From IMG/VR virus record IMGVR_UViG_3300022822_000015: a stretch of DNA of 20,000 bases. The stretch is one strand, 5' to 3'. Below are positions 1-20,000 of the stretch, in pieces. The notes under the pieces were generated by a model. The model was not told where the DNA came from, searched no databases, and saw only the letters and a program-made list of their open reading frames with translations. This stretch comes from an uncultured virus (IMG/VR IMGVR_UViG_3300022822_000015) (taxonomy: Duplodnaviria > Heunggongvirae > Uroviricota > Caudoviricetes). The translations under genes were made by a program, and so were the position numbers. Each line of letters starts with the position of its first letter. The first letter of the stretch is position 1.

Positions 1-1
1 C

Positions 2-1228
2 TGCACCAGCAACAACTCCCGGAGCAACAGTAGCACCTTTAACACCACCGCCTACCATAGCACCTACTAAAGCAGAGTAGTTGGCTTCATCTATATTACC
101 TTCTTCATTAAGTTCATCTAAAGCAGACCTAATAGAAAAGTCATCCATCTTAGCTTGTAGTATTGAATGCCAAGTTTGTAAATATTCTAGTGTTGCTTCT
201 AATCCGCCAACAGCAGACACTTTTACAGCAGCTTTTAGTACTCTTTTAGCAACTTCTACACTGTATTTTTTAGGTATAGGAGACAATGCTTTTGAAATGT
301 CTTTTGCATATTGTTTAGTAGCGTTTTTAGCAACTGTAACACCTGCTATAGATGGCAAAGCACTCATAAATATAGCTCTATCAAACATCATAAGTGCTAA
401 AGCAGCAGGAGCATTAACTAATTTGTGCATAACTGAAGACGCTTCACCATTTTCTTTAATGTAAGCTTCTTCATTTTGTTGTAATACAGCAGCAGTTGAT
501 AAACTTACTTGACTAGCTTTTTTACCAACAGACTTAGTAGCAGCTAGTGCTTTTTGTAATACGTTTAATTTTACACCTGCATCTTTAGCAGCTACTGCAT
601 CAGTAACAGCATCTGATATATCACCTATTGCATTAGCACCACGAAAAAGCTTTTTACCAAGCATAGGTAAACCACCAATACCAGCAGTACCAAGAGTACC
701 AGCAATGCCTGACGCTATTGTTCCAGTTAAACTGTCTACAGCTAGTTCTGGAAGTACTTTTGCAGTTGTACTTATAGCGTCTATTACATTACCTGCTGCG
801 TCTAAATACTCACCTTCTCTTAAACTTATTCTAGCGTTAGCTAAACTGTTTATGCCTGAAGATGCTGCTTCATTAAGCTCTTGCCTTACCGTGGCTCTAA
901 CGTTACTTCTAACGTCAGCTTCTTCCATTAGATTAGGGTTAGATTCTCCTGAAGCAATATTTTTTATGTTGTTAAATTCTCTATCAACAGCAGCAGTACC
1001 TAATGAGTACAAGTCATTAGCAAAACTAGTACTATTTGCAAGACCACCATTAAATCTGTCTATGTTGTTAGCTTGTTCTTCAGACACAGGAGTAACTTTA
1101 GGTTCAGGTGTAAGCTTTTGTTGCTTACTTGCTATTTTGTCTTTTAAAGAATCAATTTTCATGTCCAATAAAGAAGACGAGTAGTCTACCTGATAAGCAT
1201 TTCCAGCATTTCTAAATATTTCAGACAT
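2..1228 (-). CDS. N-terminal part (~409 aa, runs off the left edge) of an N4 gp50-like virion RNA polymerase / large ejection protein
   Basis: Not in the ORF track. ATG at 1228, 6 nt after the stop of the 668-aa gene, and no stop seen down to the window edge (MSEIFRNAGNAYQVDYSSSLLDMKIDSLKDK...GGLEATLEYLQTWHSILQAK...ALVGAMVGGGVKGATVAPGVVAGA). Ala/Gly-rich hydrophobic helices. Occupies the gp50 position after gp53-52-51. No polymerase catalytic motifs lie within the window. Confidence 0.7.
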   Translation of the reverse strand, partial: MSEIFRNAGNAYQVDYSSSLLDMKIDSLKDKIASKQQKLTPEPKVTPVSEEQANNIDRFNGGLANSTSFANDLYSLGTAAVDREFNNIKNIASGESNPNLMEEADVRSNVRATVRQELNEAASSGINSLANARISLREGEYLDAAGNVIDAISTTAKVLPELAVDSLTGTIASGIAGTLGTAGIGGLPMLGKKLFRGANAIGDISDAVTDAVAAKDAGVKLNVLQKALAATKSVGKKASQVSLSTAAVLQQNEEAYIKENGEASSVMHKLVNAPAALALMMFDRAIFMSALPSIAGVTVAKNATKQYAKDISKALSPIPKKYSVEVAKRVLKAAVKVSAVGGLEATLEYLQTWHSILQAKMDDFSIRSALDELNEEGNIDEANYSALVGAMVGGGVKGATVAPGVVAGA

Positions 1229-1234
1229 AGTTAG

Positions 1235-3241
1235 TTACTTACCTTGTTCTTCTAATAAAAGTTTCAAGTATTCTGCTTGTTGTTTTTCAGCTCCTGATTT
1301 AGGTTTAAAATCTTTTAGTTTTTGATCACCTGTTCTAAGAGCTTCTAATAACTGTTTAATTTTATCTTCATCAACTTTACTTTTTAAATCTCGAAGTTTT
1401 TGGAGTTTTACATTGCTTGCAGTTTTTTCAGCTTTTTCTTGAGCTTGTTCAAAATTAAAATTTTGTAGTCTAAAATCAGTACCATTAGGGTTAGTTCTTT
1501 CAGGTCGATCTCCAGCACTGTAGTTAAAAATAGAAGTATCTTTATACTTAGGATTTTTTGCGTCTACTTCACTTAAACCTTTTTGAGCTGCAGCTTTTTC
1601 TGCTTCAGTACTATTAGGGTCTAATGCTATAGCTATAAAACCTCTTTTATCAGCAGCAACTTTTTGAGATTTAACTTTTGCTCTAGCCTCTAATTCTTTA
1701 GCTTTTGTAGTTATTTCTTTAGTTTTAAGTTCAGGTGTGTACGTATTACCGGGACCAGAAAGTATTCTATTTTCAGCAGGTGTAATATCTCTTTCTTTTG
1801 TGCTAATAGGAGCTTCTACAGGTTCTTCAACATCATCACTAGTATCTATTTCATCTTCAGAAATTATAGGCTTAAGCTTAATTTTAGGCTTAGTTTTAGG
1901 TTTATTTCCACCTAGTTTAAAGTCTCTACTAACTCCTGTTTGTTCTTCAATAAACTTTTGAGCTTGTTTTTGTCTTTCTTCAGAAGTAGTAGCTTGCTGT
2001 ATAGAATTTTTTAATATTTTGTTAATAGAGTCATCGTACTGAGAAATTAAACTATTATATAGAGACTGTTGTTGTTGAAATTTTTGATCATTACTTTCAC
2101 TACCACCAATTTTTCTACTGCTAGAAGCTTCTTGGTTTTGTTGAGCACCTAGTGCAATAGCAGCCATAGTATCATCGTTAGACATCATATCTGATATGTC
2201 TTTGCTAAACGTACCATCACCATTTATTAATTTTAAAGCTCTCATAGCTCTAATAGTGGCTGCTGGTCCAACTTTAGATTGAGACTGACTAGCAGCAACT
2301 ATAGTTTGTAAATCATCTATAGACATATCAGGAGAATTTAAAGGAAATAAACCAAAAAATGTTTCAGGAGTAAGTGCTTCACTGATCCATTTTATAGCAC
2401 CTTTACTTTGAGGAACATTTAATGTTTCTGAAATATCTTTAAAAGCATCAGCATTTTCTTTTTGACTTATAGAACCAGTTTTAAATGCGTTAGTTCCAAT
2501 ATTAGTAGTATTACTATTTCCTGAGTTGCTAAATATTTTGCCAGCAAAATTTAATCTATTTTCAGCATTTTTACTTAATCTTTCTTGACTTTTAACATCT
2601 AACACACTGTAATTTTCAGTAGCTGTTTGTTGCATTTGTGCTATTTCTGTTTCACTTAGACCAGCTTCTCTTGCTAAAGCAGCTACATCTGATTTTATTT
2701 TAGCAGGGTCTTGATACAGTCTAGGGTTATCAATCATATTTTGGATAAACCCATCCATAAGATCATCTTTTCTTTTATAACCATCTACTTGATTTAGATT
2801 TATAGAAGTATTTCTTCCACCGTCACTAATAGTTCTTGTACCAGAAGTTTGTGTTTGGTAACCCGGAGAATTAAATATAGCTTGTTTTGTGCCTTGTTCC
2901 ATCTCAAAAGAAGGCTGCATATCTTTAGCTTGTTGAATTAAATTGCTCATAGCTAAATTTTTATCTATACCTCTTTGTTTTTCTAAATCAAAAATACGTT
3001 GTTCTTCAACTACAGCTCTTTGACCTTCGTTTTCACGAAAATTTTGTTGTCTTTCAAAATTGGCTTGTTGTTGCATAACAGCATTTTGCTCAAGCTGTGC
3101 ATTTCTAGCTTCTTGCATTTGTGCATTTATACTAGCAAGACCTTTTTGAGAACTCTCAATAGAACGTGCAGCGTTAGCAAAAGCTTGGTTAGAGCCACTA
3201 AAGTTAGGATTTATTCTAGATCTAAAAAGTTCACCAGCCAT
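1235..3241 (-). CDS. N4 gp51-like internal virion (ejection) protein, 668 aa
   Basis: Size and position between the gp52-like and gp50-like genes; Q/N/A-rich helical N-terminus. Assignment is mainly by synteny. Confidence 0.6.
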   Translation of the reverse strand: MAGELFRSRINPNFSGSNQAFANAARSIESSQKGLASINAQMQEARNAQLEQNAVMQQQANFERQQNFRENEGQRAVVEEQRIFDLEKQRGIDKNLAMSNLIQQAKDMQPSFEMEQGTKQAIFNSPGYQTQTSGTRTISDGGRNTSINLNQVDGYKRKDDLMDGFIQNMIDNPRLYQDPAKIKSDVAALAREAGLSETEIAQMQQTATENYSVLDVKSQERLSKNAENRLNFAGKIFSNSGNSNTTNIGTNAFKTGSISQKENADAFKDISETLNVPQSKGAIKWISEALTPETFFGLFPLNSPDMSIDDLQTIVAASQSQSKVGPAATIRAMRALKLINGDGTFSKDISDMMSNDDTMAAIALGAQQNQEASSSRKIGGSESNDQKFQQQQSLYNSLISQYDDSINKILKNSIQQATTSEERQKQAQKFIEEQTGVSRDFKLGGNKPKTKPKIKLKPIISEDEIDTSDDVEEPVEAPISTKERDITPAENRILSGPGNTYTPELKTKEITTKAKELEARAKVKSQKVAADKRGFIAIALDPNSTEAEKAAAQKGLSEVDAKNPKYKDTSIFNYSAGDRPERTNPNGTDFRLQNFNFEQAQEKAEKTASNVKLQKLRDLKSKVDEDKIKQLLEALRTGDQKLKDFKPKSGAEKQQAEYLKLLLEEQGK

Positions 3242-3248
3242 TATATTA

Positions 3249-3713
3249 TTACCCTATTGCACTACCATCTACATTAGCTGCTTTAGCTCTTGCCATTCGG
3301 TCTATATATTCTTGACTACCAGCTTCCACACTATTTAATGCTAAACCATTACGAGTTCTTTCCATAAGATCTGCATTATAAGAAGTTGCATTATTAGCAA
3401 GACTTCTATTCATACCAGCTAGCTCAATACCAAACTGTTTTTTTCCTTGCTTACGCATTTGGTGAGCATTATACATACCATATAGGCTACCTAAACCTTG
3501 AGCAGCTAACCCAAAGTTTTGAAATCCATTTAAAGATTCTGGTGCTTTTGGGTAATTTTGATCACCCATTAAAACACCATTACCTGCATTCATTCTGTAG
3601 TCTTGTGGTTTATAACTAAAATCGTCATAGGAAGCTGCTAAACTAAATTCTTTAGCAGGGTCGTATATTTGTGTTGTTGTAGGAATTTTGAAATTACTGT
3701 AAGTTTCACCCAT
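3249..3713 (-). CDS. N4 gp52-like small virion/ejection protein, 154 aa
   Basis: Gly-rich amphipathic segment GLAAQGLGSLYGMYNAHQMRKQGKKQF followed by N..NNATSYNADLMER; size and synteny match gp52. Confidence 0.7.
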   Translation of the reverse strand: MGETYSNFKIPTTTQIYDPAKEFSLAASYDDFSYKPQDYRMNAGNGVLMGDQNYPKAPESLNGFQNFGLAAQGLGSLYGMYNAHQMRKQGKKQFGIELAGMNRSLANNATSYNADLMERTRNGLALNSVEAGSQEYIDRMARAKAANVDGSAIG

Positions 3714-3730
3714 AATTCTGTACCTTTTTG

Positions 3731-6472
3731 TTAAACTACACCTAAAGTTAAGGCGTTTTTATGATAGTTGCCCACTACTGTACCATAATCATACATGCTA
3801 GAATAGTTGTATTGTATTGGTCCAGCCATAAACCTATATGTGTCAGGACTATTAAGAAAAGCTAGGTAGGTTGGGTCTAATCCATTTTCTTGTGCTTCTA
3901 TTAATCTAGCTAGTTCTTGTGACCTAATATCAAATTGATTATTTATTTCTAGCATCTCTGCTTGAAGCTCTAGTATATCTGCATTTATATCAGCTACTAT
4001 CATATTACTAAACTGTGTGACGCTTTGTGTAATAACAGCAGGATCACTCATACCTGTTGAACCTGAACCAGTTTGGCTAGTTAAGTAAGCAGCACCAGCA
4101 GCAACAACTACTTTTAAAAATTCACTATCTATACTAGATATTATAGCAATTGCTATAGAAATAATAACATAATTAGCTAATGCAACCTGAAAAAAAGCAG
4201 CTAAAGATAGTTTTGTAGGGTCAAAAGTTATCAGAGTGTAAACTATTAGTACTATTTCTAGTAAATCTGCAAACGCTGAAGTTTCATACCAAGCCACTTC
4301 AGTTATCTGTACAGAATAAAAATTCATCCTTAAAGCTAGGGTGTACAACTGTAGTTGTTCAACTGGAGTTAAACTATCAATAGAAAAATGAGACAACAGT
4401 ATAGAAAAGTTATCATCCCCTAGTTTACTAAGGCTCATGTTTTCTTGCCCATTACCTAAAATAAACTCTATACCAGACATGTTTGTTAATACAATTGTAG
4501 AACAAGAAGTAGTAGACACCTGTTTTCTCATAGTAAGAGTGTTTACGTTAGTTACAGTATGGCTGTAAGTACCAATTGGACCTGAATCAAATATGGTAGT
4601 AGAAGCATTTTGTGTAGACCATACTACAGCTCGTTTTACATTTTGTTCTAAAAACGTAGCATAATACCCTTGGTTGTCTACTGTTGTATTAAAATCAACA
4701 GCTTCTGTAATTACTAATGTATAAAACATCTCATAAAGAATTTTAGAAACTACTGTTGCTGTATCAGTAGGGTTTACAGCGAAGGATAAAAATCCTTCTG
4801 ATATACCAGCAATATTAGGGTTAGCTTCTATTTGTTGTATTATGTCGTTAAACTCTAAGTCTAAAGTACCTAATAGCCCTACTATACCATCATAGTTTTC
4901 TTGTCCTACACTAACTACACTGGCAGAAACTGTGTTAGACCTAAGTATACCAATAGGCATAAACTCTAAGTTACTTAAACTACTGCTTACCATTTTAACA
5001 TCAGGGTAAGTATTACTACTTATGTCATACACCCAATATTTCCATTCAGCAATTTCGTCAATATAGTAAGTAACAATTACATAAGAAATAATTCTATAAG
5101 CAGGTCTAGTAATCACACTAGTCAAAGTTTCTGTTAAAGGAGATGGCATATTAGTGTTATCTGTGTCTACAGGGTTAGCAACACTATAAGTAATAGTAGT
5201 TGATATGCTGTGTTTTCCTTCAGCTAAAGCGGTAGCTTCAAAACTGTCTTGTGTAGAGATACTTTCTATACTTACAACCATAGTAACAGAGGAACTTAAC
5301 AAGTTTACTGTTTCCGGGGTTATAGTAAAACCTAAACCTGTACCACTAGAAGAAATTTGGTTTATGGTAGTTCCTGCAGAAGCATCACCACCAGAACTTG
5401 TCACTGTAAAAGTTATTACATTTCCGTCTACATCTACACTATCTACTGTTAACACATCATCATTGTCCAAAGTTATTGTGTCTAATGCACTGTAGAAATT
5501 AGTACTGTCGCTTCCAGAACTAGAGTACGAACCATTACTGCCAGAATCATCGTAGTTTGCCTCTGTTTGATCTTCTAACAAGGTATATTCATAAGGTAAT
5601 GAGTTTGCTTCAGTACTAATAGTAAAGTCTGTGTACGATGTACCAGCTAGCAATACTACAGTATCAACTGAGGTAAAATGGGTACCGTTTGTAGCTGTTC
5701 CTGTGTAACTTAAATTAACTGTGACAGTTTTGTTAGCAGGTATAAGTCTATCGACACTAACTGTGTACATTAGTGTGTTATCTCCTTGAACTACTTCTGA
5801 ATAACCAGATAAATAAAACGTAGCAGTTTCTCTTAGTCTCTGTACTGTTAATTGGTAGTTATTAGCTCCTGCATTGTACGTAACAGCAGATAAAAAATAG
5901 CTATCGAAAGTACCGTACTCGTCACTAAAAGTTAATGTATTAAGATGGGGAAGATAACTATAAACATTTTGTAAATAGTGTTTAAAATAAACTTCTTTTG
6001 TAGGGTACTTTTGTACTGCACTAGTAATATTAACTGTGTAACCAGTTATAGAAAACAAAGCATTAATAACAGCAGATTGGTCTATAGTATTTTTACGTAC
6101 ATTTGTTGTAGGTAAAGCATAAGGATACTCACCTTCTTCTGCGTAATTGTAGTAACCGTCTATTTTTCCTTGAGCAACTTTAGTGTACTTATTAAACGGA
6201 GATATTAATGCAATAGCAGAATTTTTTGTGTACTCAAGTGCTATTTTAACTAACGCATCTTCTTCTAGATCTGTAGTTGAAGGATAAACTTTCTGTGAAA
6301 CATGTTGTACTTGTACTACGGTCTCATCTTCGATACCAAATATACCTACTACAAATTCCAGTAAAGGCATAACAATATCATCCCATACTGTTTCTACAGC
6401 CTCTACTACTCCTTCAACAACATCTTCTACTATGTCTATTATATCTTCAATAATTTCTACAACAGCACCCAT
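3731..6472 (-). CDS. N4 gp53-like structural protein, 913 aa, with an internal Calx-beta-like domain and C-terminal hydrophobic helices
   Basis: Size and synteny; WKYWVY...FMPIGILR motif; VAWYET followed by hydrophobic helices near the C-terminus. Confidence 0.7.
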   Translation of the reverse strand: MGAVVEIIEDIIDIVEDVVEGVVEAVETVWDDIVMPLLEFVVGIFGIEDETVVQVQHVSQKVYPSTTDLEEDALVKIALEYTKNSAIALISPFNKYTKVAQGKIDGYYNYAEEGEYPYALPTTNVRKNTIDQSAVINALFSITGYTVNITSAVQKYPTKEVYFKHYLQNVYSYLPHLNTLTFSDEYGTFDSYFLSAVTYNAGANNYQLTVQRLRETATFYLSGYSEVVQGDNTLMYTVSVDRLIPANKTVTVNLSYTGTATNGTHFTSVDTVVLLAGTSYTDFTISTEANSLPYEYTLLEDQTEANYDDSGSNGSYSSSGSDSTNFYSALDTITLDNDDVLTVDSVDVDGNVITFTVTSSGGDASAGTTINQISSSGTGLGFTITPETVNLLSSSVTMVVSIESISTQDSFEATALAEGKHSISTTITYSVANPVDTDNTNMPSPLTETLTSVITRPAYRIISYVIVTYYIDEIAEWKYWVYDISSNTYPDVKMVSSSLSNLEFMPIGILRSNTVSASVVSVGQENYDGIVGLLGTLDLEFNDIIQQIEANPNIAGISEGFLSFAVNPTDTATVVSKILYEMFYTLVITEAVDFNTTVDNQGYYATFLEQNVKRAVVWSTQNASTTIFDSGPIGTYSHTVTNVNTLTMRKQVSTTSCSTIVLTNMSGIEFILGNGQENMSLSKLGDDNFSILLSHFSIDSLTPVEQLQLYTLALRMNFYSVQITEVAWYETSAFADLLEIVLIVYTLITFDPTKLSLAAFFQVALANYVIISIAIAIISSIDSEFLKVVVAAGAAYLTSQTGSGSTGMSDPAVITQSVTQFSNMIVADINADILELQAEMLEINNQFDIRSQELARLIEAQENGLDPTYLAFLNSPDTYRFMAGPIQYNYSSMYDYGTVVGNYHKNALTLGVV

Positions 6473-6479
6473 AATTAAA

Positions 6480-6959
6480 CTACCTAGAATTATGTAAAAT
6501 TTTATCCAATTTCTGTTTTATTAGACTAATGTTTATGATAACAGGGGTACCAAACTCATACCATTTTTTAATACTTTTAACTGTTAGTAAACTTTTTAAG
6601 TTAATAACTCCTTCTTTTTTATGGGGAATAAAACTAAGAGTCTTTACAGGTGAATAAGCATTTCCATAGAATATACTTATAAGAAGTGTTAGTGTACCTA
6701 CAGGATTTCCTTTACCATAAAACAAAACTCCTTCAGTTTTGTAAGGACTTAGTTTCTTAAAATACAAAAAACAAGACCCATCAATTAAACAATACGCTGT
6801 GTTCTCAGCTATACACTTTAACATACGTTTTTTGTGTATATTAGTGTCACTATCAGAAACTAAGGATTCTACAACAGAGTAGTGGTTATCTATATCTTGT
6901 TCATTACATTTACGGATGTAGTTATCATTCTGCAGTAAATTAATAAGTTTGTATTTCAC
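6480..6959 (-). CDS. Hypothetical protein, possible GNAT-fold acyltransferase, 159 aa
   Basis: GTG start 1 nt after the ACP stop. YIRKCNEQDIDNHYSVV resembles the GNAT beta1-alpha1 opening (IRxAxxxDxxxI), and the size is typical of GNATs. No clear acetyl-CoA-binding (R/Q)xxGxG motif. Confidence 0.4.
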   Translation of the reverse strand: MKYKLINLLQNDNYIRKCNEQDIDNHYSVVESLVSDSDTNIHKKRMLKCIAENTAYCLIDGSCFLYFKKLSPYKTEGVLFYGKGNPVGTLTLLISIFYGNAYSPVKTLSFIPHKKEGVINLKSLLTVKSIKKWYEFGTPVIINISLIKQKLDKILHNSR

Positions 6960-6960
6960 A

Positions 6961-7200
6961 TTATACAGAAGTAGTTGAGTGGCAGATAGAAACTAACATT
7001 TTTACGGACAAAGCATCTACATCTATATCATCAAATTCTGCTGTGTCAATATCATAATCATTGGCTATTGTAAGCAGTACTATTACTACTCCTAAACTAT
7101 CAAGCTCGCTATCCATAAACATACCGTCCATGAGAACAGGCAACCCATTCTCATAGACAATACAACTATTTATGTTAGCTAGTGTTTCTTCTTTAGTCAT
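6961..7200 (-). CDS. Acyl carrier protein (phosphopantetheine-binding), 79 aa
   Basis: FMDSELDSLGVVIVLLTIANDYDI matches the ACP helix-II signature (F.DLG.DSL..VEL...E..F.I), with the DSL serine at residue 35 (Ser36 in E. coli AcpP). 15 Asp/Glu versus 2 Lys; C-terminal LSVKMLV resembles the helix-IV 'TV.D.V' segment. Confidence 0.8.
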   Translation of the reverse strand: MTKEETLANINSCIVYENGLPVLMDGMFMDSELDSLGVVIVLLTIANDYDIDTAEFDDIDVDALSVKMLVSICHSTTSV

Positions 7201-7730
7201 TAGGCTGGCAAATCATTTAGTATATCTTCATATAGTGCAGAAGTTTTAGCTTCATTAACAATAGTTGGAGCAGCACCTGTTTTATTAACAGAATAGTAAA
7301 TAGCCCAAGTTTCTAGTGTTTTAGCTAGTACTTTTTGTTTAGCATCTACTTTAAACCCTAGTGTTTGAGCTGTAATTAGGTCGTCTTTTTTATCTTCCGT
7401 AGTTTTTTGTGCTTCAAGAAGTAAATTTTTACTAATACTTTCTATGACCTGTTTATCAACTAAAAGTTTTTGTGCTTGCAGTAAAGCAGAAGTATCTATC
7501 TGTATTTGTGTCTCTAGATAAATTTTTGCAGCTGTTTGAATTACTGACTGCATAGCTCCAAGATACACTTTAGCGTAGTCAACACCATTAATAGCACCTG
7601 AATCGTACTGAGACTTAATGTGAGCAGTAATACTCTCCATCATATCATCAAAAATACCATCTCCTTGTACTTTATAAGTAGAGGAGTCAGTAGTTACGTT
7701 ATTTGTAAACTCAGTAAAAGCTAAGGTCAT
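7200..7730 (-). CDS. N4 gp54-like structural protein, 176 aa
   Basis: GDGIFDDMMESITAHIKSQYDSGAINGVDYAKVY matches the gp54-family pattern G.G.FD.LM....HL..EY..G.I.G..YA..Y; synteny. Confidence 0.75.
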   Translation of the reverse strand: MTLAFTEFTNNVTTDSSTYKVQGDGIFDDMMESITAHIKSQYDSGAINGVDYAKVYLGAMQSVIQTAAKIYLETQIQIDTSALLQAQKLLVDKQVIESISKNLLLEAQKTTEDKKDDLITAQTLGFKVDAKQKVLAKTLETWAIYYSVNKTGAAPTIVNEAKTSALYEDILNDLPA

Positions 7731-7732
7731 TT

Positions 7733-8215
7733 TTATTCACCTTCACCATAACTAATAGCGTATTTTTTTACTCTTATAGTAATCATATTACCTGTGTCTT
7801 TTCCATCAACAAATTCACGTTTATGTAGAGGCATAAGAGTAGAAGCTGCAATTTTAATTAGTGCTACTTCTAGCTCTACAGGAATATCTAACGGTACATT
7901 TTTAGCTAATCCGAAGTAGTTATTCTCAAAACTCAAATGTGCAGTATTAGCTACAGCAGAATCACGAGGATCTTTATTTGTAATAGTTACTACTCTTGTT
8001 TTGAAAGCCGCTTTACGTTTTTCATTAATTTTTTGTCTTTTAGTTAGCGGTTTTTTAGAATGTTTTTCAGAAACAACTACTGGTTCTACATCTTGTGTTT
8101 CTACTTTTCCGTTAGCTTCATCAACTTTAGCTTGTAGTTTTTTAGTAGGAATATTAGCTTGAAACTCTAAACCTAGCTCATTAGCTTCCAGTATTAGGTC
8201 ATCTCGATCTGACAT
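7733..8215 (-). CDS. N4 gp55-like protein, 160 aa
   Basis: EANELGLEFQANIPTKKLQAKV N-terminal motif and RVVTITNKDP...KNVP; lies directly downstream of the capsid gene. Confidence 0.7.
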   Translation of the reverse strand: MSDRDDLILEANELGLEFQANIPTKKLQAKVDEANGKVETQDVEPVVVSEKHSKKPLTKRQKINEKRKAAFKTRVVTITNKDPRDSAVANTAHLSFENNYFGLAKNVPLDIPVELEVALIKIAASTLMPLHKREFVDGKDTGNMITIRVKKYAISYGEGE

Positions 8216-8239
8216 GTGTTAAATCCTTTCAGTTGTTTA

Positions 8240-8278
8240 ACAAATTAATAATAGCCGGGACTTTTTCAAGTCCCAGCT
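8240..8278 (-). terminator. Stem-loop (probable intrinsic terminator) downstream of the major capsid gene
   Basis: Minus-strand RNA AGCUGGGACUU-GAAA-AAGUCCCGGCU: 11-bp stem with one U-G pair and a GAAA tetraloop, followed by an interrupted AUUAUUAAUUUG tract. Confidence 0.7.
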
Positions 8279-8294
8279 GGTTAATACTTATTGG

Positions 8295-9518
8295 TTATTT
8301 GCTAGCGCAAACATACCCTTTAAGTAAACGTTCTTCTCGCAAGATAAGACCTGCGTACCAAAAATTGTAACTAAAGAAACCTTGAGTTGCATAAGGATTA
8401 CTAAGTTCAATCTTACCGGGAGACTGACTGTTAAACTTAATTTTTCCTTTACCTTTTAGTCCTACAATAGCAAAAGAGCCTTTTGTTGGAAACAAGATAG
8501 GGAAAACATCAAAGTTATCACGATCACCAGCAGTACCAGAAGTATTATCAGTACCACCACTAGAAGATAGATCACCTACGTAGTTCTGAGGTACAACACT
8601 ACCTTGAGCAGCGTAAACTAGAGCAGACTCAGATTCGATGAAACGAACATCACCCATAGAACCAACTTCACCTTCAGCTAGGCTAGCTGCTGCTGCATAC
8701 TTGTATGCAGGGATATAAGCGAACTCTTCAGCGTTACCTGTACCACGAGTCAAGTTATCAAGATCGTACTTGATTTCTGGACCAATAACAGCGTAGTAAG
8801 CTTTATTGATTGCACGAGTATCAACTTTAGTGTCACCTGAAACAACAGTAGTGTTCTTTTCAGCACGATTACGTACCAATCGACGAGTAATTTTACGGAT
8901 CATATCGTATGAAATCCGTGAATCATTATCATCTGTACCGTCAGTTTCAGCAGTATCTTGACCAATTTCTGCAATAGCAGTAGCACTTCCAACGTACTGG
9001 ATAGTAGTAGTAGCTAGCAAATCAAGCTGTGTAAGATCTTCGTACCGCATATTAGCTAGGTGTCCTAACTCTTCACGGTATTGAATCTGTACCATGTCCT
9101 CAGAGAACATATCAACTTCATCAGTATAATCAAGCATTTCACCGTAACGAGCAAAACCTGTTTCAATAGTAACTTTTTTAATTGTTACTTTATTAGCTGC
9201 ACCAGAACCTTCTGATAGCGTAGGCATACCTGCTGAAACATCAGTGATGTTACGTGCAGTAAGATAACCCTTAGTACCAAATTCTGAGTCAGTTCCACCT
9301 ACTTGACTACTAGGATCAAGTTTACGATCATAAATGTGTAACCATTTACTGACCTTAAAAGTTTTACCCATTTTGAGAGGCATAGATCGACGATCAGCAA
9401 ACTGACCATAAATATTTACAACGTTAGCTGCTTTAACACCAGCTTTGTCGTAATAATGCGTAATTGTATTCGGACCAGAAGTACTGTTAGTACCATTTCC
9501 GTAGACGTTATCTACCAT
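8295..9518 (-). CDS. N4-like major capsid protein (gp56-like), 407 aa
   Basis: YGQFADRRSMPLKMGKTFKV, LSEGSGAANKV, YIPAYKYAAAASLAEGEVGSMGDVRFI, FDVFPILF and NPYATQGFFSYNFWYAGLILREERL are N4 capsid-family motifs; AGGTGA RBS. Confidence 0.92.
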   Translation of the reverse strand: MVDNVYGNGTNSTSGPNTITHYYDKAGVKAANVVNIYGQFADRRSMPLKMGKTFKVSKWLHIYDRKLDPSSQVGGTDSEFGTKGYLTARNITDVSAGMPTLSEGSGAANKVTIKKVTIETGFARYGEMLDYTDEVDMFSEDMVQIQYREELGHLANMRYEDLTQLDLLATTTIQYVGSATAIAEIGQDTAETDGTDDNDSRISYDMIRKITRRLVRNRAEKNTTVVSGDTKVDTRAINKAYYAVIGPEIKYDLDNLTRGTGNAEEFAYIPAYKYAAAASLAEGEVGSMGDVRFIESESALVYAAQGSVVPQNYVGDLSSSGGTDNTSGTAGDRDNFDVFPILFPTKGSFAIVGLKGKGKIKFNSQSPGKIELSNPYATQGFFSYNFWYAGLILREERLLKGYVCASK

Positions 9519-9539
9519 TTAAATCACCTTTTTAGTAAA

Positions 9540-10670
9540 TTAGTTTGCACTTGTTACTTTTTTATACCAAGCGTCAAAATTTTCATCATTGTCGTCATCT
9601 AAATAATCGATGACACCTTTTTTACCAGCAGTAGAGGCTGTTGAACTAGCTGCTCTTTTGCTTTCAGCTTCTGATGATTCTTTACCAAATTTTGTCTCTG
9701 CCTCTTGTGCGCTTTTATTCAAGTCATCTACAGCGTTCTGGTTATTACCAGCTTCTATAGATTTTTGATAATCAGCACCTGCAAGAAGGTAGTAATCTAA
9801 ACTAGATTTAGAATTTCCATCTAACATTTGTAACTTTGCTGCTTCAGGAGCTACTTTAGCGTAGACACCTGATTTTATATCGTGATGCAGACCCATAATA
9901 ATTTTAGGGTTGCCTGCAATAATTTTCCTAGATCCATCATCCCATTGATTGTCTATAACATCAACAGTTGTTTTGTACTCTGGGTCTTTAGATATAGAAT
10001 CTTCAATCTCTGAAATTTCTAACTCAAAGTCTGATTTGCCGTAACTTTTAGATTCATACGGTTCAGTCTCTTCATCAAAACTCAGATCACTGAGATCAAT
10101 ATCTCTATCAGAAGCCAATTTTTTAATAGCACCTTTGTCACCTTTAAGGATGTCTAAGGCTAAGTCAAATTGGTCTTGAGTAATACTTTCTTCTTCCAGT
10201 GCAGAGATCATCTTCCTGTAAGGAGCCATCTTCTGCATTTTTTGAGTGTAGTCCATTGCCTTACCGAACACACCTTCAAACTGGTCCATGATTTCTTCAT
10301 CAGAGAATTCAAAGTCTTGACCATTAGCTTTAAACTTTCGTTTAATAATGTTTTTAACTTCTTCTACTTTCTTTTCAGAACCATCTTCAAGATCTTTATC
10401 AGTATCAAGTTCGTATTTATTTTCATTAATATTATCTGCGTCTGTATCAGACTTTTTAGTATCTTCATCTAAAACTTTGCCATCAGATAAATTTTTATCA
10501 CCAGAAGTTGTAGTATCCTCTTCAGATGTTGTTTCGTTACTGTTATCTTTATTTCTAGATAACAACTCAGCTGCGTCTTCATTTCCTTCTTCACGACGAA
10601 TTGCAGCCAGTGCATCAATAGGATCAATGTCGTTATCAAAAATTTCGTCTTCAGATAACTCGGTACTCAT
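9540..10670 (-). CDS. N4 gp57-like protein (often labelled tape measure; position and composition suggest a scaffold), 376 aa
   Basis: Acidic low-complexity N-terminus, FKANGQDF...MDYTQKMQKMAPYRK and HDIKSGVYAKV motifs; immediately upstream of the capsid gene. Confidence 0.75.
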   Translation of the reverse strand: MSTELSEDEIFDNDIDPIDALAAIRREEGNEDAAELLSRNKDNSNETTSEEDTTTSGDKNLSDGKVLDEDTKKSDTDADNINENKYELDTDKDLEDGSEKKVEEVKNIIKRKFKANGQDFEFSDEEIMDQFEGVFGKAMDYTQKMQKMAPYRKMISALEEESITQDQFDLALDILKGDKGAIKKLASDRDIDLSDLSFDEETEPYESKSYGKSDFELEISEIEDSISKDPEYKTTVDVIDNQWDDGSRKIIAGNPKIIMGLHHDIKSGVYAKVAPEAAKLQMLDGNSKSSLDYYLLAGADYQKSIEAGNNQNAVDDLNKSAQEAETKFGKESSEAESKRAASSTASTAGKKGVIDYLDDDNDENFDAWYKKVTSAN

Positions 10671-11002
10671 TATTCAGTACCTTCAAGTTCTTCTTCATCT
10701 ACTATTTCAGAGTTAAGAGCACCTGCGTAGTTATACTCAACCATCATAAAGAAATAACCTAAGTTACTGCCTGCCACTAGATCTTCCATAATAGCTGATC
10801 GTTCACCTCGTCTAATAACTCCGGGATCTGCTAACATACTAACAGAATCTAATGCTTTATCTTTAAGATAACCATTAGTAATTACTCTTTGAAACTGAGA
10901 GTTATTTTTTAGCCAAGCTAAATCTTCTCCCATAGTAATGTGGTGTTCTGTTTCAATTGTTTCTAGCTCTACTTGATCTTGTTCTTCTGTCAGGCTACTC
11001 AT
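10670..11002 (-). CDS. N4 gp58-like protein, 110 aa
   Basis: L..LKNNSQFQRVITNGYLKDKA motif; lies between portal and gp57-like gene. Confidence 0.7.
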   Translation of the reverse strand: MSSLTEEQDQVELETIETEHHITMGEDLAWLKNNSQFQRVITNGYLKDKALDSVSMLADPGVIRRGERSAIMEDLVAGSNLGYFFMMVEYNYAGALNSEIVDEEELEGTE

Positions 11003-11042
11003 TAAGGAGTCCTATAGTTAAGTTATGTAAATAAGTTTTGTA

Positions 11043-11071
11043 TTTATACTATAATTTAATTGGTTTGTAAA
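11043..11071 (-). promoter_or_regulatory. Candidate sigma70-type late promoter upstream of the gp58-gp57-capsid block
   Basis: TTTACA-17 nt-TATAAA on the minus strand, one mismatch per box, overlapping the portal stop. The AT-rich background makes chance matches likely. Confidence 0.4.
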
Positions 11072-12993
11072 CTATCAATAGATTTTAATCCTATTTGTGT
11101 GTCTCTATCATGATCTTTTTTGACTAGTTCATCAGATAAGTCTTCACCTGTAGCTTTTTTCATAAAGTCTAAATCTTTAACATCTGTGTCGGAATCGGTA
11201 AACCTAGCTTTAGCTTCAGCTAATACAGCATTCGCAGTTTTTAAACGAAGATCAGCTGAGTTTTCTTCTGCTCTAGATTGTCTTTCTAGTATCTCCACTT
11301 TCTTTAACTGCAATTCAAGAGATTTCATTTCTTCTAAATATGGATCAGGCTCAGGTCTGTATTCTTCTATGGACTTTGCTACATCAGGCATTTTATGAAG
11401 TTTCATTATCTGAGCCATTATAATTTTACGTACACCGGGATCTTCATTAGGCCCATTAGTTTGAAGTAAGAAAGATAGTTCTTGGCTTTTAGCAGCATTA
11501 TCTTCAGCTGTAGATACTTCAATATCTATATCTACTTCACCAGCTAAGTCATCCCTTCTAATAGGAACATGTTGATCATTCGTTATACGTATTATTTCTT
11601 CTTCTTGTAGCCATACGGAGTTGTATGACATCCATTTACGCATAAGAGGTTTCATTAAGTTTTCAGCTACGTTTCTTACAATATCTAGTCTACGTACTGA
11701 TACAGCATCTAATACTCCCCCTGCTGCTCTAGCAGTAGATCCTAGTCCTTGCCCGTTAATACCACCTGAGAAACTTTTAATACCTGTAATAGCATCTGTC
11801 TCGTTATTATTAAGTTCAAGCATAGAAAACATACTGTTAGGTAAGTTATTATAAGAACCTTCATAAAAATCAGAAGAATTAGTGTTGTACTCAAAATTTC
11901 CTCCTGCAAGAAATCTTTTTTTGTTAAGTGTATCTAACGAACCTTTACGTATACCTTTCTGCCCATTATTGGAGTTAGCCATATTATCTATAGCACCACG
12001 TTTAATAGCAGTAGAGACTTTTTGGTTATCCCCTATCATTTCAGCGTTAGCTTCACCTGTCATTTGGAAAGGTATAGAATTATGTGCTACTACTAAAAAA
12101 GGTATTTTCTTATCAGGATAAGGATTACTTTCTAGCCTGATAATCACGTTGTTAACCCAAGTACAAATAATAGGTTTAGCAATACCTGTGCCATCTATAT
12201 CGTAGTTTCCCCAATACTCATGAATAATAAGTTTCTTTCTAGGTTTATCTTTAAACTCAAAACTACTACCTTTCTTTTCGTGTTCAGGAGTATAGTCATC
12301 ACTATCTCTAGCCATATCTTCAGATACTTTATTTAGTGCTTTATCGTTATACTTTTTATTTACACGTAGGGTACTAAGGTCACTCTCATACCTATGTACC
12401 ATAAACTGACACTTATCTAAGTCTCCTTGACAAGTAGGATCAATGTAGATGTCTTCTATACGACAAGTTTCTGCAAATGGTTTATTTACTAGTACTTTAA
12501 GTTCCTTTACTGTTTTGATACCTATTTGTACAGGTTTACCACTGTAAGGATCTAAATCATACACTGGGTAATCTTTTTCTACTTCTTCATCTTCGTAATC
12601 CCATGAACACTTAACAATTAGTGTGCCTTCAGTAGTAAGTAGTTTTATGCTATCCGTAATAAACTTGTACCTATTAAACTTACGAGTAAATTGGTAGTTT
12701 AGTATTAACTGGTTCTGTTCTGCTGCTTGACGATCTTCAGCTGTAATAGGAGTACATTTAACAATGTCTGCTGAAGATAGAAAAGGGTCTTTAAGAGAAG
12801 CATGTTGCCACTCGTCCTGACGCTTTATATCTCTCGATACTATCTTCGATTTACCCTTCTGCTCATTACCATAAGGTTCACCGTTATACTCTTTCTTCCA
12901 AGTTTCTACCTTAGAGACAGTTTCTAGTCTAAGGCTGTCAGCACTTGTAAGGTCATCTTTTAAACTTGATAATATTTTTGCTTTGTCTACCAT
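11056..12993 (-). CDS. N4-like portal protein (gp59-like), 645 aa
   Basis: GKSKIVSRDIKRQDEWQHASLKDPFLS, EDRQAAEQNQLILNYQF, IIHEYWGNYDIDGTG, NPYPDKKIPF, SNNGQKGIRKG, TGIKSFSGGI and STAEDNAAKSQELSFLLQTNGP are N4 portal motifs. Confidence 0.92.
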   Translation of the reverse strand: MVDKAKILSSLKDDLTSADSLRLETVSKVETWKKEYNGEPYGNEQKGKSKIVSRDIKRQDEWQHASLKDPFLSSADIVKCTPITAEDRQAAEQNQLILNYQFTRKFNRYKFITDSIKLLTTEGTLIVKCSWDYEDEEVEKDYPVYDLDPYSGKPVQIGIKTVKELKVLVNKPFAETCRIEDIYIDPTCQGDLDKCQFMVHRYESDLSTLRVNKKYNDKALNKVSEDMARDSDDYTPEHEKKGSSFEFKDKPRKKLIIHEYWGNYDIDGTGIAKPIICTWVNNVIIRLESNPYPDKKIPFLVVAHNSIPFQMTGEANAEMIGDNQKVSTAIKRGAIDNMANSNNGQKGIRKGSLDTLNKKRFLAGGNFEYNTNSSDFYEGSYNNLPNSMFSMLELNNNETDAITGIKSFSGGINGQGLGSTARAAGGVLDAVSVRRLDIVRNVAENLMKPLMRKWMSYNSVWLQEEEIIRITNDQHVPIRRDDLAGEVDIDIEVSTAEDNAAKSQELSFLLQTNGPNEDPGVRKIIMAQIMKLHKMPDVAKSIEEYRPEPDPYLEEMKSLELQLKKVEILERQSRAEENSADLRLKTANAVLAEAKARFTDSDTDVKDLDFMKKATGEDLSDELVKKDHDRDTQIGLKSIDSLQTN

Positions 12994-13001
12994 GTTAAAA
13001 C

Positions 13002-13109
13002 CTAAAGGTTGTCTTTTACAACAAATTTTTCAATACTAAAAGATCCTGTCCATGTAACTAGTGCATTTAAACCACCAATTAACATGTAGACTTGTGTTGT
13101 TGTGGTCAT
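13002..13109 (-). CDS. Possible 35-aa small protein (MTTTTQVYMLIGGLNALVTWTGSFSIEKFVVKDNL)
   Basis: AAGGA RBS-like sequence and an ATGA overlap with the upstream 42-aa ORF; ends 8 nt before the portal start. Confidence 0.3.
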   Translation of the reverse strand: MTTTTQVYMLIGGLNALVTWTGSFSIEKFVVKDNL

Positions 13110-13234
13110 TTAATGTCCTTACTAACGATAGACATATTCAATTTAACAAAACTAGTGGGCATAGTAATAAATGTCTCTAGGACTAACAGGTTACTTGTTT
13201 TTATAGTCACTATGTTAGGAGTTTTAACTAACAT
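13106..13234 (-). CDS. Possible 42-aa small protein (MLVKTPNIVTIKTSNLLVLETFITMPTSFVKLNMSIVSKDIK)
   Basis: ATG overlaps the end of the 67-aa holin-like gene; fills an otherwise empty gap in a densely packed operon. Confidence 0.25.
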   Translation of the reverse strand: MLVKTPNIVTIKTSNLLVLETFITMPTSFVKLNMSIVSKDIK

Positions 13235-13427
13235 TATTTTCTCTCTGGTACTTCATCTTAAACCATATAGTAAACCCAGCCATACCAAGCGTGGTTACTA
13301 TACCTATAAGAACTCCTAAAATTCCCCACTCTGCTGCGTTTAACCCAAATAACACTGTACCGCCACCTGCTACATACGTTGATGTGTTCAGCCAGTTGGC
13401 TATATTTTGTAATATGTCATCTTTCAT
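13224..13427 (-). CDS. Small holin-like membrane protein, 67 aa
   Basis: Hydrophobic segments (YVAGGGTVLFGLNAAEWGILGVLIGIVTTLGMAGFTIWF) with a basic tail KMKYQR; within the lysis cassette. Confidence 0.6.
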   Translation of the reverse strand: MKDDILQNIANWLNTSTYVAGGGTVLFGLNAAEWGILGVLIGIVTTLGMAGFTIWFKMKYQRENNVS

Positions 13428-13924
13428 TATTTGGCTACTCTATCTTTGTTAGCACTGCTTCTGGTTGTTCCGACCCAGTATGCGATTGAAGCCATCCATG
13501 CTGCTACGATCTGACCAACAAGCATGTTTAACATCTGATCATTACCAATAGGAATTGGTGCAAATATCAAAGCCAGTGTGATGACAGTTACAACTATCGA
13601 TAGGCCGATACAGATAGCTGCTGGCATTCGACTGTGTTTGTGTGCTGATCTGGCATTTTGAGTATCCCCTAGCTCAGAGGCAACCAGCTCGTTATCAAGC
13701 TCTTTCATTCGTATCTTGAAAGAGTTGTTAGCTTGAGTCACTTTCAACATCATCTCAGGACTGGCTTCTTCTACTGCTACACGCAACTGTTCTTCATTTG
13801 ATACTACGCCACCAGTAGCATCTGATATAGCTCTAATAGCTAATTGGGGCAGTGTGGCTCCACCAGATAATACTGCTGCTGCTATATCGGGAGCGTAACT
13901 TGTAAGTTTTTTTAACCAGTCCAT
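13427..13924 (-). CDS. Holin-like membrane protein (3TM/GTA-holin-like), 165 aa
   Basis: N-terminal AP.IA..L.GG motif, coiled coil ending DTQNAR, two C-terminal TM helices and a YWVGTTRSSANK ending (cf. YFFGSS..S..K); adjacent to the endolysin. Confidence 0.65.
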   Translation of the reverse strand: MDWLKKLTSYAPDIAAAVLSGGATLPQLAIRAISDATGGVVSNEEQLRVAVEEASPEMMLKVTQANNSFKIRMKELDNELVASELGDTQNARSAHKHSRMPAAICIGLSIVVTVITLALIFAPIPIGNDQMLNMLVGQIVAAWMASIAYWVGTTRSSANKDRVAK

Positions 13925-13926
13925 AA

Positions 13927-14367
13927 TTACACTCCAACTATTTCAAAGTGTACTAAGTCTTCAAATGTCTGATCACCAACATCATTATCCATGTCCCAAT
14001 CACCACCCCATCTTAATTTGTAAGCTATAGCTCCGTCAAGGTATAAAGCGTCTGCAACACCGATAACGTAAAAAGCAAAATAACGAAATTTTTCGTATTC
14101 GTTTCTATTACCTTCTCCCCACTTTTTTGGAATAGGGTAAGGGCTAACGTCTAAAGCCATTGATGGAACAGAGTTATGTTTACTATTAGGCCATTTAACT
14201 TTAGACAGTTTAGGTTTGTTACTAAACATTTTTGTTTGGTCTGCTTCGTTTCTATGTCCAGTTAAAATAGTGTTGTCCCAACCTTGCAAAACAGTTTTAA
14301 AAATAAGCTGTAAATCAGGATGAGCCTGCAGTAATTTACTTTCTGAATTTTTGCTGTACTTGTTCAT
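13927..14367 (-). CDS. Endolysin, peptidase M15 family (L-Ala-D-Glu peptidase-like), 146 aa
   Basis: HPDLQ, GHR, SKH....S.ALD and RWGGDW...DLVHFE zinc-peptidase motifs. Confidence 0.88.
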   Translation of the reverse strand: MNKYSKNSESKLLQAHPDLQLIFKTVLQGWDNTILTGHRNEADQTKMFSNKPKLSKVKWPNSKHNSVPSMALDVSPYPIPKKWGEGNRNEYEKFRYFAFYVIGVADALYLDGAIAYKLRWGGDWDMDNDVGDQTFEDLVHFEIVGV

Positions 14368-14370
14368 AAA

Positions 14371-14751
14371 TTAAAGTCCTTCAGTTATATGAATGTCAAT
14401 TAATTCTTGTTCAGTAGTGCAGTCATTAATGTCTATTTGCATAGCGTCATCAGCGTTACGAATAACTAGTCTATCAGCTTCTGCTTGAGTAGCATCATTT
14501 CCGGGAATTTGTAACGCTATAATAGCGTCTAATGGTGCAAATGCTAATTGTCGTTGTACTCTACGTAAATCATGTGTAATTAGTTTAGCAGAATCTATAT
14601 TTGTTACCACCGCGTCACCTACAATTCTCCATGCTGAACGAAAAACGCTATCGGGTACTGACTCCACCTCTTTCCATGTTGCACCTTCAGGGATTGAGGA
14701 CTGCTTTGAGCAAATCGCAACGGTGTTGTCTTCTTGTTGATATACGTACAT
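14371..14751 (-). CDS. Tail fibre assembly/chaperone-like protein, 126 aa
   Basis: IPEGATW...VPDSVFRSAW...AKLITHDLRRVQR...FAPLD...AEADRLVIR pattern typical of small proteins encoded after phage fibres. Confidence 0.55.
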   Translation of the reverse strand: MYVYQQEDNTVAICSKQSSIPEGATWKEVESVPDSVFRSAWRIVGDAVVTNIDSAKLITHDLRRVQRQLAFAPLDAIIALQIPGNDATQAEADRLVIRNADDAMQIDINDCTTEQELIDIHITEGL

Positions 14752-15218
14752 TAATGCTTCCTCAAATAGTTAATAGCCTTCTCAAGAAGCCCTATATTAT
14801 CTTTAAAATGGCCTAAAGCAAAGTTACAGCTTATACATAACAAGCCTCTAACCTCACCTGTTATGTGGTCATGGTCTACGTTTAAGCTCTTAGTGCAGTC
14901 ATCTTCATGTACATTACATATTAAACATGAGTAATCCTGACTTACCAGCATACTCGTATAGTCATCGTAGGTTATGCCATAGTTTTTCTTTAACCTAGTA
15001 TTAGCTACTTGCCTTGGGTTAGCTTTATACCATGCCTTAGCCCTGCTGCTGACCTTATCTTTTCTACTGTCGTCATAGGCGATATACTGATAGTTGCGAC
15101 AAGGAATGCATATATTCCTATATCCATGCTTTGATCCCTTATCAATAACAAAGCCTTTAAGATCTTCCGCAGTATGAGCCGACTTATCACAAGAAGGGCA
15201 GGTTCTTAGTGCTTCCAT
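14751..15218 (-). CDS. Endonuclease VII-family (His-Me finger) nuclease, probable free-standing homing endonuclease
   Basis: YGITYDDY...Q..SCLIC...LNVDHDHITGEVRGLLCISCNFALGHFKD, plus N-terminal CxxC...CxxC. ATG at 15218 (1 nt after the fibre stop, GGAGG upstream) is preferred to the TTG at 15236. Confidence 0.85.
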   Translation of the reverse strand: MEALRTCPSCDKSAHTAEDLKGFVIDKGSKHGYRNICIPCRNYQYIAYDDSRKDKVSSRAKAWYKANPRQVANTRLKKNYGITYDDYTSMLVSQDYSCLICNVHEDDCTKSLNVDHDHITGEVRGLLCISCNFALGHFKDNIGLLEKAINYLRKH

Positions 15219-15219
15219 C

Positions 15220-17562: not shown

Positions 17563-17693
17563 TATGTGTCACCTGTGATTATTGCGACTCTCGCCGCTGA
17601 TCTAGCGTCTGTAATATTAGTAGGCACTGGCTCACCACTATCTACGTCACAACTTATATACCAGTTAGCTGTTATGCAGTTTATAAGTTCCAT
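17562..17693 (-). CDS. 43-aa fibre-associated small protein or truncated remnant (MELINCITANWYISCDVDSGEPVPTNITDARSAARVAIITGDT)
   Basis: Not in the ORF track. AAGGA RBS and TAATG coupling to the 780-aa gene; resembles the TDWY..R..E.G..IP..I...R..AR..I motif of small tail-associated proteins. Confidence 0.5.
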   Translation of the reverse strand: MELINCITANWYISCDVDSGEPVPTNITDARSAARVAIITGDT

Positions 17694-17778: not shown

Positions 17779-17798
17779 TTAGGATGCTCCATCTGTTA

Positions 17799-19999: not shown

Positions 20000-20000
20000 G

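Follow-up and report, generated by a model that had tools for sequence, protein, structure and literature searches.

The window analyzed here, a stretch of 20,000 nucleotides (nt) from the uncultured virus IMGVR_UViG_3300022822_000015, holds a late minus-strand virion operon of an N4-like phage, in which two extra genes, one for a very divergent acyl carrier protein (ACP) of 79 amino acids (aa) and one for a 159-aa protein of predicted GNAT fold, lie between the genes for a gp54-like tail tube and a gp53-like tail plug. The arrangement is conserved among relatives, some of which add a compact ketosynthase gene to the cassette. The gene identities at the level of profile or fold, the conserved position, the ketosynthase of the relatives and the absence of enzymes that could load the ACP from the phage are established. 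We tentatively read the cassette as a module for acyl-ACP/GNAT transfer to a tail or ejection protein, the plug being the first candidate acceptor, a reading that we consider plausible but somewhat short of probable.

Conserved position of the cassette in N4-like phages

All genes listed below lie on the minus strand, and their coordinates are positions in the window.

6961-7200 (-): 79-aa divergent ACP gene, from family-profile matches; candidate phosphopantetheine serine at residue 35
6480-6959 (-): 159-aa GNAT-fold gene with a GTG start, unannotated phage family, from the predicted fold
7200-7730 (-): gp54-like tail-tube gene, 176 aa; PHROG 2050 (virion structural protein), E 4.1e-27
3731-6472 (-): gp53-like tail-plug gene, 913 aa, N-terminus MGAVV; PHROG 2220, E 8.5e-28; candidate acceptor
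3249-3713 (-): gp52-like ejection protein gene, 154 aa, N-terminus MGETY; PHROG 2646, E 8.7e-8, and position after the gp53-like gene

The operon is assigned to an N4-like phage by its portal protein (Pfam SU10_portal, E 3.6e-132) and by PHROG matches of the major head protein and of the genes at the gp57, gp54, gp53 and gp52 positions. A preliminary description, made from the sequence alone, had reported the two extra genes and their junctions, and these are as described: the gp54-like stop and the ATG of the 79-aa open reading frame overlap as TAATG, the GTG start of the 159-aa frame stands 1 nt past the 79-aa stop, and the gp53-like ATG follows 7 nt past the 159-aa stop. The GTG start is backed by the orthologue in lineage L007, which starts with ATG and aligns from residue 1. 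As had also been stated, gp54 and gp53 are consecutive in coliphage N4, where they are 3 nt apart, so the ACP and GNAT-fold pair is an insertion relative to N4. Tight gene packing is unremarkable by itself, because it is usual in phage late operons; it is the conserved arrangement at the gp54/gp53 junction that exceeds chance.

To describe this arrangement, lineages were defined as clusters of the GNAT-fold protein at 90% identity, and genomic context was available for 12 of them, with GNAT-fold identity between lineages as low as 20-25%. In all 12, the GNAT-fold gene lies directly upstream of the gp53-like gene and the gp54-like gene lies upstream of the cassette; in most, the GNAT-fold stop overlaps the gp53-like start. 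The ACP is present in 11 of the 12. Six lineages (L007, L010, L020, L022, L040 and L042) carry a ketosynthase gene of 276-279 aa between the ACP and GNAT-fold genes, while five have the ACP and GNAT-fold genes only (the window, the Alteromonas phages PT11-V19 and R22Y, L029 and L031). In the remaining one, L035, the GNAT-fold gene stands alone between the gp54-like and gp53-like genes, and ACP and ketosynthase signals are both absent within the 8.1 kb examined. What stays constant in the cassette is not the ACP but the GNAT-fold gene, which is coupled to the plug gene. Lineages with the ketosynthase are mixed with those lacking it (GNAT-fold identity is 65% between L022 and L031 and 48% between the window and L007), and therefore the ketosynthase was lost or gained more than once.

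Three cassette hidden Markov models (HMMs) found no cassette at the fetched regions of five of five cassette-free Schitoviridae, namely N4, pYD6-A, Pollock, VBP47 and 1.097.O, and gp54 and gp53 are adjacent in all five. The gp54 HMM also matches the annotated gp54-like genes of these five phages, and tblastn together with HMM searches links the gp53-like gene to the gp53-position genes of pYD6-A, Pollock, VBP47 and 1.097.O. Around the cassette of the window promoters are not enriched (15 sites against 23.8 expected), and no convincing terminator was found inside the cassette block. According to the part of the N4 structure paper available to us, gp54 forms the tail tube, gp53 is the plug, with a hydrophobic knot that corks the tube, and gp52 and gp51 build the channel through the outer membrane and the tunnel in the periplasm (PMC13434306).

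A previously unannotated GNAT-fold family

Structure prediction clearly assigns the 159-aa protein to the GNAT fold, as a member of a previously unannotated family. It has no match in Pfam (E ≤ 1), PHROGs or NCBIfam, and word-index homology searches with the two window proteins recovered just themselves. An exhaustive profile search gathered a family with 133 cluster representatives (E ≤ 1e-3; 87 of them reach E ≤ 1e-10 and 45 reach E ≤ 1e-30), nearly all of which stand alone and are about 160 aa long. Among the 25 Pfam families listed out of 38, no GNAT sequence family is matched by any of 121 members, and a profile of these 121 sequences has 0 matches at E ≤ 10 among PDB sequences. A language-model look-up of the 159-aa protein led to viral GNAT clusters, a weak lead with a score of 0.90.

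The fold is seen in an AlphaFold2 model with a mean predicted local distance difference test (pLDDT) of 80.8 and a predicted TM-score (pTM) of 0.77, whose predicted order of elements, beta1-alpha1-alpha2-beta2-beta3-beta4-alpha3-beta5-alpha4-beta6, is that of a GNAT. All eight Foldseek matches at E ≤ 1e-3, and likewise every match listed, are GNAT enzymes, with Ard1 at the top (E 1.8e-4, TM-score about 0.5). VIA, an exhaustive aligner independent of Foldseek, gave Z ≥ 8 for 66 chains, and GNAT entries fill at least 46 of its best 50 rows, including Gcn5 (Z 10.2), Ard1 (9.9), RimI (9.7) and NatA (9.6). Thus the GNAT-like character that the preliminary description had read from the opening of the protein is borne out at the level of fold. 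Conservation across the 121 members is concentrated in Y66 (120 members), H113 (112), H26 (110), C18 (106) and D22 (102); judging from the alignment, this near-invariant Tyr, two His, Cys and Asp are residues of catalytic type. C18, D22, H26 and H113 might make up a metal site or a triad.

The divergent acyl carrier protein and its charge complementarity

By its family profile, the 79-aa protein is a very divergent ACP. Searched singly, it has no match in Pfam at E ≤ 1 or in PHROGs, PADLOC returned nothing usable for it or for the 159-aa protein, and NCBIfam gave weak, sub-threshold DltC/ACP matches (DltC, E 0.0083). For the carrier-protein family PF00550, the window ACP has no match at E ≤ 1 and the L010 orthologue reaches 18.9 bits against a cut-off of 20.8. 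The signal emerges from an 11-sequence alignment of relatives from viral and metagenome contigs: as a profile against solved proteins, this alignment matches the rhizobial protein NodF (1fh1) at E 1.3e-4 and the ACPs 2koo and 2cnr at 1e-3. Carrier proteins make up 21 of its 22 matches at E ≤ 0.1, with DSL aligned to the DSL of NodF and ACP, and 26 of the 27 matches at E ≤ 10 of a 5-sequence profile.

Six residues (D30, L33, D34, S35, L36 and C73) never vary among the 11 relatives aligned, and Ser35 is the serine of the ACP motif M-D-S-E-L-D-S-L. The profile match to NodF and the invariance of S35 uphold the earlier claim of an ACP with an intact DSL serine. An invariant cysteine such as C73, in the C-terminal region, is unusual for an ACP; the GNAT-fold family has its own near-invariant cysteine, C18.

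In the AlphaFold2 model of the ACP the helices are predicted in the order of an ACP, with helix II at residues 34-49 beginning at about S35. Foldseek returned nothing at E ≤ 0.001 for this model, the top three of its four weak matches being ACPs, and carrier proteins appear in 30 of the best 50 VIA row titles (Z ≤ 5.3). The Foldseek comparison that the preliminary description had proposed for both proteins thus succeeded for the 159-aa model (GNAT in eight of eight) and gave nothing significant for the 79-aa one. An orthologue, gp30 of R22Y, was annotated as an ACP by the authors of that phage, as stated in the part of their paper available to us (PMC11705849).

The isoelectric points (pI) of the two proteins are complementary. 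That of the ACP is 4.1 in the window and 4.1-4.7 across lineages; the GNAT-fold protein is basic, with a pI of 9.4 in the window, 8.6-9.4 in five of the six ACP-linked lineages computed, and 6.3 in the ACP-less L035. These computed charges fit docking of the ACP on the GNAT-fold protein.

A compact ketosynthase in relatives and the missing loading enzymes

The ketosynthase of the relatives (277 aa, of compact beta-ketoacyl-ACP synthase [KAS] I/II type) looks functional from its sequence and predicted structure. Cys108, His207 and His236 are invariant in four of four sequences, the L007 protein matches Pfam ACP_syn_III at 26.3 bits (cut-off 24), and the family profile matches solved ketosynthases in the PDB. 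An Atlas model (pTM 0.89) has FabB/F-like neighbors with TM-scores of 0.83-0.89 over the full length. The presence of the ketosynthase inside the cassette in half of the lineages strengthens the case for acyl chemistry beyond what the preliminary description could see. As a separate observation, the ESM Atlas holds compact ketosynthases of 287-327 aa in several large clusters (89-245 members) that are wholly or mostly viral, and small phage ketosynthases seem widespread beyond the tail cassette (seen beside that of L007, 5210-6046).

The absence of a phosphopantetheinyl transferase (PPTase) and a ketosynthase, noted earlier for the window, extends to the whole 198,785-bp source record (G001), where searches with the ketosynthase of relatives and PF00109 found no ketosynthase, PF01648 found no PPTase, and neither a further phosphopantetheine-binding domain nor an AMP-binding ligase was detected. 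The family is also rare among sequenced phages: of 50,697 GenBank phage records, only those of the Alteromonas phages R22Y and PT11-V19 carry a member, tblastn with the distant members P0072 and P0087 revealed no further carriers there, and single-protein scans with the distant members P0072 and P0118 yielded no loci. Scanned by pattern, 185,579 species genomes yielded no relative of the GNAT-fold protein or of the ketosynthase, which is weak evidence of absence because such scans depend on few peptide patterns. The GNAT-fold family appears to be phage-only.

A proposed acyl-transfer module for a tail protein

If the cassette is an acyl-transfer module, its ACP would be converted to the holo form by host AcpS, which we propose because the phage has no PPTase. 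The holo-ACP would then be charged with an acyl group by the phage ketosynthase where there is one, which may tailor the acyl chain, and otherwise by host fatty-acid enzymes. Fold and gene linkage suggest that the basic GNAT-fold protein would dock the acidic acyl-ACP and pass the acyl group to an amine. The acceptor would most probably be a tail or ejection protein, and synteny points to the plug, encoded immediately downstream, as the likeliest one.

The preliminary description had gone further, taking the Met-Gly start of both downstream proteins as a clue to N-terminal acylation. The window gp53-like and gp52-like proteins do start with Met-Gly, but the correlation with the cassette fails, an outcome that the preliminary description had itself named as refuting its proposal. 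Beside the cassette, residue 2 of the gp53-like protein is Gly in 4 lineages, Ser in 7 and Cys in 1, all six ketosynthase-bearing lineages having Ser, and a gp52-like Met-Gly start occurs in one of eight lineages, the window phage only. Conversely, the three cassette-free phages with an unambiguous gp53 start all have Met-Gly (N4, MGLFSS; pYD6-A, MGRYQ; VBP47, MGKYQ); thus Met-Gly is an old gp53 feature, unrelated to the cassette, and from these sequences it looks conserved across Schitoviridae. We therefore rejected Gly2 as a marker of the acylation site, and a Gly2-specific, myristoylation-like rule is not supported by the N-termini compared. Every gp53-like N-terminus would expose a small residue (Gly, Ser or Cys) once Met is removed, which is compatible with N-terminal modification and is not evidence for it. 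Other parts of the earlier interpretation fared better: the ACP and GNAT identities, the insertion relative to N4, the non-host-like character of the gene and the missing loading enzymes all held.

Two further observations concern gp53 N-termini. Pollock (L058, 3182-5557) and Vibrio phage 1.097.O (L060, 3362-5377) have an in-frame MGLFS or MGKYQ 13-18 codons inside the annotated gp53-like start, and these annotated starts may be too long. In ACP-bearing lineages the first approximately 45 codons of the gp53-like gene (6338-6472 in the window) encode a strongly acidic, hydrophobic stretch with 5-13 Asp/Glu and 0-2 Lys/Arg per 45 residues, which precedes a conserved F-G-I-E-D-E-T-V-V motif. The gp53 N-terminus is basic or neutral in the ACP-less L035, N4 and pYD6-A, a contrast that is confounded by phylogeny.

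Several points weigh against acyl transfer from the phage ACP to a tail protein. The acceptor stands at the level of a candidate, drawn from gene order. A GNAT fold carries no information on donor or acceptor, and GNAT-like decarboxylases match the model too (Z 8.5-8.7). In the 121-member family, the beta4-alpha3 loop (residues 82-86) lies outside the 28 best-conserved columns. The ACP was modeled with low confidence (pLDDT 67), and the model drew weak fold matches from both Foldseek (E ≥ 3.9) and VIA (Z ≤ 5.3). Since L035 shows no ACP in its 8.1 kb, the phage ACP is not obligatory and another donor, such as acyl-CoA or host ACP, must be possible. Neither a PPTase nor an acyl-ACP synthetase was found in the 198,785-bp record. 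N4 and other relatives manage without the cassette. Finally, context covers only 12 of the 133 GNAT-fold clusters, and retrieval favored sequences near the queries.

A more specific form of the proposal is that marine N4-like phages make or capture an acyl chain on their own carrier, half of the lineages with a 277-aa ketosynthase of their own, and that the GNAT-fold enzyme lipidates the plug or another ejected tail protein, which would then, as ejection begins, partition into the outer membrane of the host. We regard this as possible though doubtful. If true, it would be the first case of a tailed phage with a lipid on a virion protein, and the first of a virus that encodes a carrier/synthase set reserved for a virion protein. 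Virion proteins of tailed phages are not known to be fatty-acylated, and a literature search surfaced no report of an acylated tailed-phage virion protein, of the paired GNAT-fold family or of ketosynthase-bearing relatives, the R22Y paper alone being found. In the N4 structure paper the words "acyl" and "myristoyl" are absent, and the opening of the outer membrane by N4-like phages is presented as an active structural question (PMC13434306). An acyl-transfer set fixed at the junction of the tube and plug genes offers a concrete hypothesis of lipid-assisted entry, and two cultured Alteromonas phages carry the cassette. Whatever the acceptor, the cassette defines a GNAT-fold family that comprises 133 clusters and had no annotation, a family of very divergent ACPs and a near-minimal ketosynthase.

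Known systems offer partial precedents for the proposed transfer. Toxin-activating acyltransferases use acyl-ACP as the donor and have a GNAT-like fold, and in HlyC/ApxC and in CdiC of class IV CdiA a small acyltransferase gene lies beside the gene of its substrate, as in the phage cassette. However, the 159-aa protein has no sequence relation to the HlyC family (no Pfam match at E ≤ 1), and HlyC-type enzymes draw on host AcpP, whereas the phage has a dedicated ACP and, in relatives, a ketosynthase. A dedicated ACP and ketosynthase are found in the Nod system, in which NodF and NodE make a special acyl chain that the N-acyltransferase NodA then transfers. Of the solved proteins, NodF matches the phage ACP profile best; in contrast to the phage proposal, the Nod acceptor is a chito-oligosaccharide, NodA is not known to be a GNAT, and a Nod-type ketosynthase has about 400 aa compared with 277 in the phage relatives. 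The N-myristoylated penetration proteins of eukaryotic viruses are likewise lipid-bearing proteins that encounter the host membrane during entry, but they depend on host N-myristoyltransferase, myristoyl-CoA and a strict Gly2, which is unmatched in the phage gp53-like proteins (Gly in 4 of 12 lineages). As to the effect of such a modification, lipidation of CdiA by CdiC raises its binding to the outer membrane of target cells, according to the part of that report available to us (PMC8510554).

Alternative explanations

The cassette could instead be a miniature polyketide or fatty-acid initiation set, in which the GNAT-fold protein is a malonyl-ACP decarboxylase that primes the ketosynthase, giving a short beta-ketoacyl-ACP and a small-molecule product rather than a group on a virion protein. 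Loading modules of polyketide synthases (PKS) hold the same three parts, GNAT, ACP and ketosynthase, as in CurA, GphF and SxtA, and their GNAT domain is a decarboxylase. The GNAT-like decarboxylases of GphF (6mfc, Z 8.5) and SxtA (7uci, Z 8.7) are among the VIA matches of the 159-aa model, and the ketosynthase of the relatives is of the decarboxylating Cys-His-His type. Yet these matches fall about 1.5 Z below the best N-acetyltransferases (acetyltransferases, 9.4-10.2). In PKS loading modules the domains are fused, whereas the phage proteins are separate and occur in variants with only ACP and GNAT-fold protein (5 of 12 lineages) or the GNAT-fold protein alone (1 of 12), which would be senseless for an enzyme that only makes a primer. 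Moreover, the cassette has no thioesterase or other release enzyme, and a PKS-like initiation set leaves the position in the tail operon unexplained. We consider this explanation unlikely.

Similarly improbable, in our judgment, is that the GNAT-fold protein simply acetylates a tail protein from acetyl-CoA, at the N-terminus or at a lysine, as Ard1, NatA or RimI would, with the ACP and ketosynthase as unrelated passengers. Structure comparison gives this explanation its best support: Ard1 is the top Foldseek match, and N-terminal acetyltransferases (Ard1, NatA, RimI, Naa50/60/80, NatC and NatD) fill 13 of the best 50 VIA rows, including ranks 2, 5 and 8. Substrates of N-terminal acetyltransferases have small N-terminal residues after removal of Met, and the Gly, Ser or Cys that the gp53-like proteins always expose resembles such ends; the ACP-less L035 fits as well. 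However, N-terminal acetyltransferases use acetyl-CoA without a carrier protein partner, and no sequence similarity of the 159-aa protein to them was detected, 0 of 121 members matching a GNAT sequence family among the families listed. Classical GNATs bind the pyrophosphate of CoA with a Q/R-x-x-G-x-G/A loop after beta4, and the positions of that loop are not among the best-conserved columns of the phage family. The ACP adjoins in all but one of the 12 lineages, and the reading frames overlap, which is hard to call chance.

An auxiliary metabolic gene is the explanation already in print: the ACP, with its helpers, would boost or redirect host fatty-acid synthesis. In the part of the paper on Alteromonas phage vB_AmeP-R22Y available to us, gp30 is presented as such a host-metabolism gene, phage and prophage ACPs are discussed as auxiliary metabolic genes (citing PMC8224337), and neither the adjacent gene nor the setting among tail genes nor relatives with a ketosynthase are mentioned (PMC11705849). 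The gp30 gene sits at the same junction with an orthologous GNAT-fold gene adjoining. The phage ACP is remote from cellular ACPs (no Pfam match, and a family-profile E of only 1e-3 to 1e-4), it never occurs without a member of the seemingly phage-only GNAT-fold family, between tail genes of a late operon, its partner genes have no relatives found in bacterial genomes by pattern scans, and the constant element is the GNAT-fold gene and not the ACP. We therefore judge a metabolic role very unlikely and revise the published view that the R22Y ACP is simply a metabolic gene; the view of the preliminary description that the gene is not an auxiliary metabolic one is supported by the missing Pfam match, by the late tail operon without an internal terminator and by the lack of relatives in the 185,579 genomes scanned by pattern.

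Lastly, a non-enzymatic pair, in which the GNAT-fold protein would help the plug as an assembly chaperone or join it as a minor structural component and the ACP-like protein would serve as a structural adaptor, as ACP does in mitochondrial complex I, would suit the strict adjacency and translational coupling to the gp53-like gene and the complex I ACP subunits among the sequence and fold matches, but it is highly improbable given the near-invariant Tyr, His, His, Cys and Asp of the GNAT-fold family that point to chemistry, the intact Cys-His-His ketosynthase of relatives and the invariant D-S-L serine.

Other observations on the operon and the source record

The gp54-like protein varies in length from 176 to 509 aa among close relatives (the window; L007, 4177-4992; L001, 4168-5697). 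The variation lies in an internal coiled-coil-like repeat run (in L007, K-Q-G-L-L-V-D-K-Q-V-E-E), and the N-terminal and C-terminal parts are conserved. The only strong hairpin between positions 3000 and 9000 of the window is a GC-rich, terminator-like one with 11 pairs at 8253-8278 (-), between the major capsid gene and the gene at the gp55 position.

The window spans the end of the 198,785-bp record, window positions 1-17952 corresponding to G001 180834-198785 and 17924-20000 to G001 1-2077. The record contains one virion module. Second copies of an endonuclease VII gene (96% identity) and of a 780-aa fiber gene (66% aa identity) lie at 131.3-134.3 kb, their counterparts in the window being at 14603-17510. 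The duplicate copies are 64.1 kb apart, near the 65,148 bp of a contig from another data set that carries the same genes, and GC content differs between parts of the record (0.30-0.34 against 0.37-0.40). A threefold concatemer was rejected, as the locus and the virion module each occur once; the record may have been assembled as a chimera, or it may be a cointegrate of an N4-like phage of approximately 65 kb with another genome of approximately 134 kb.

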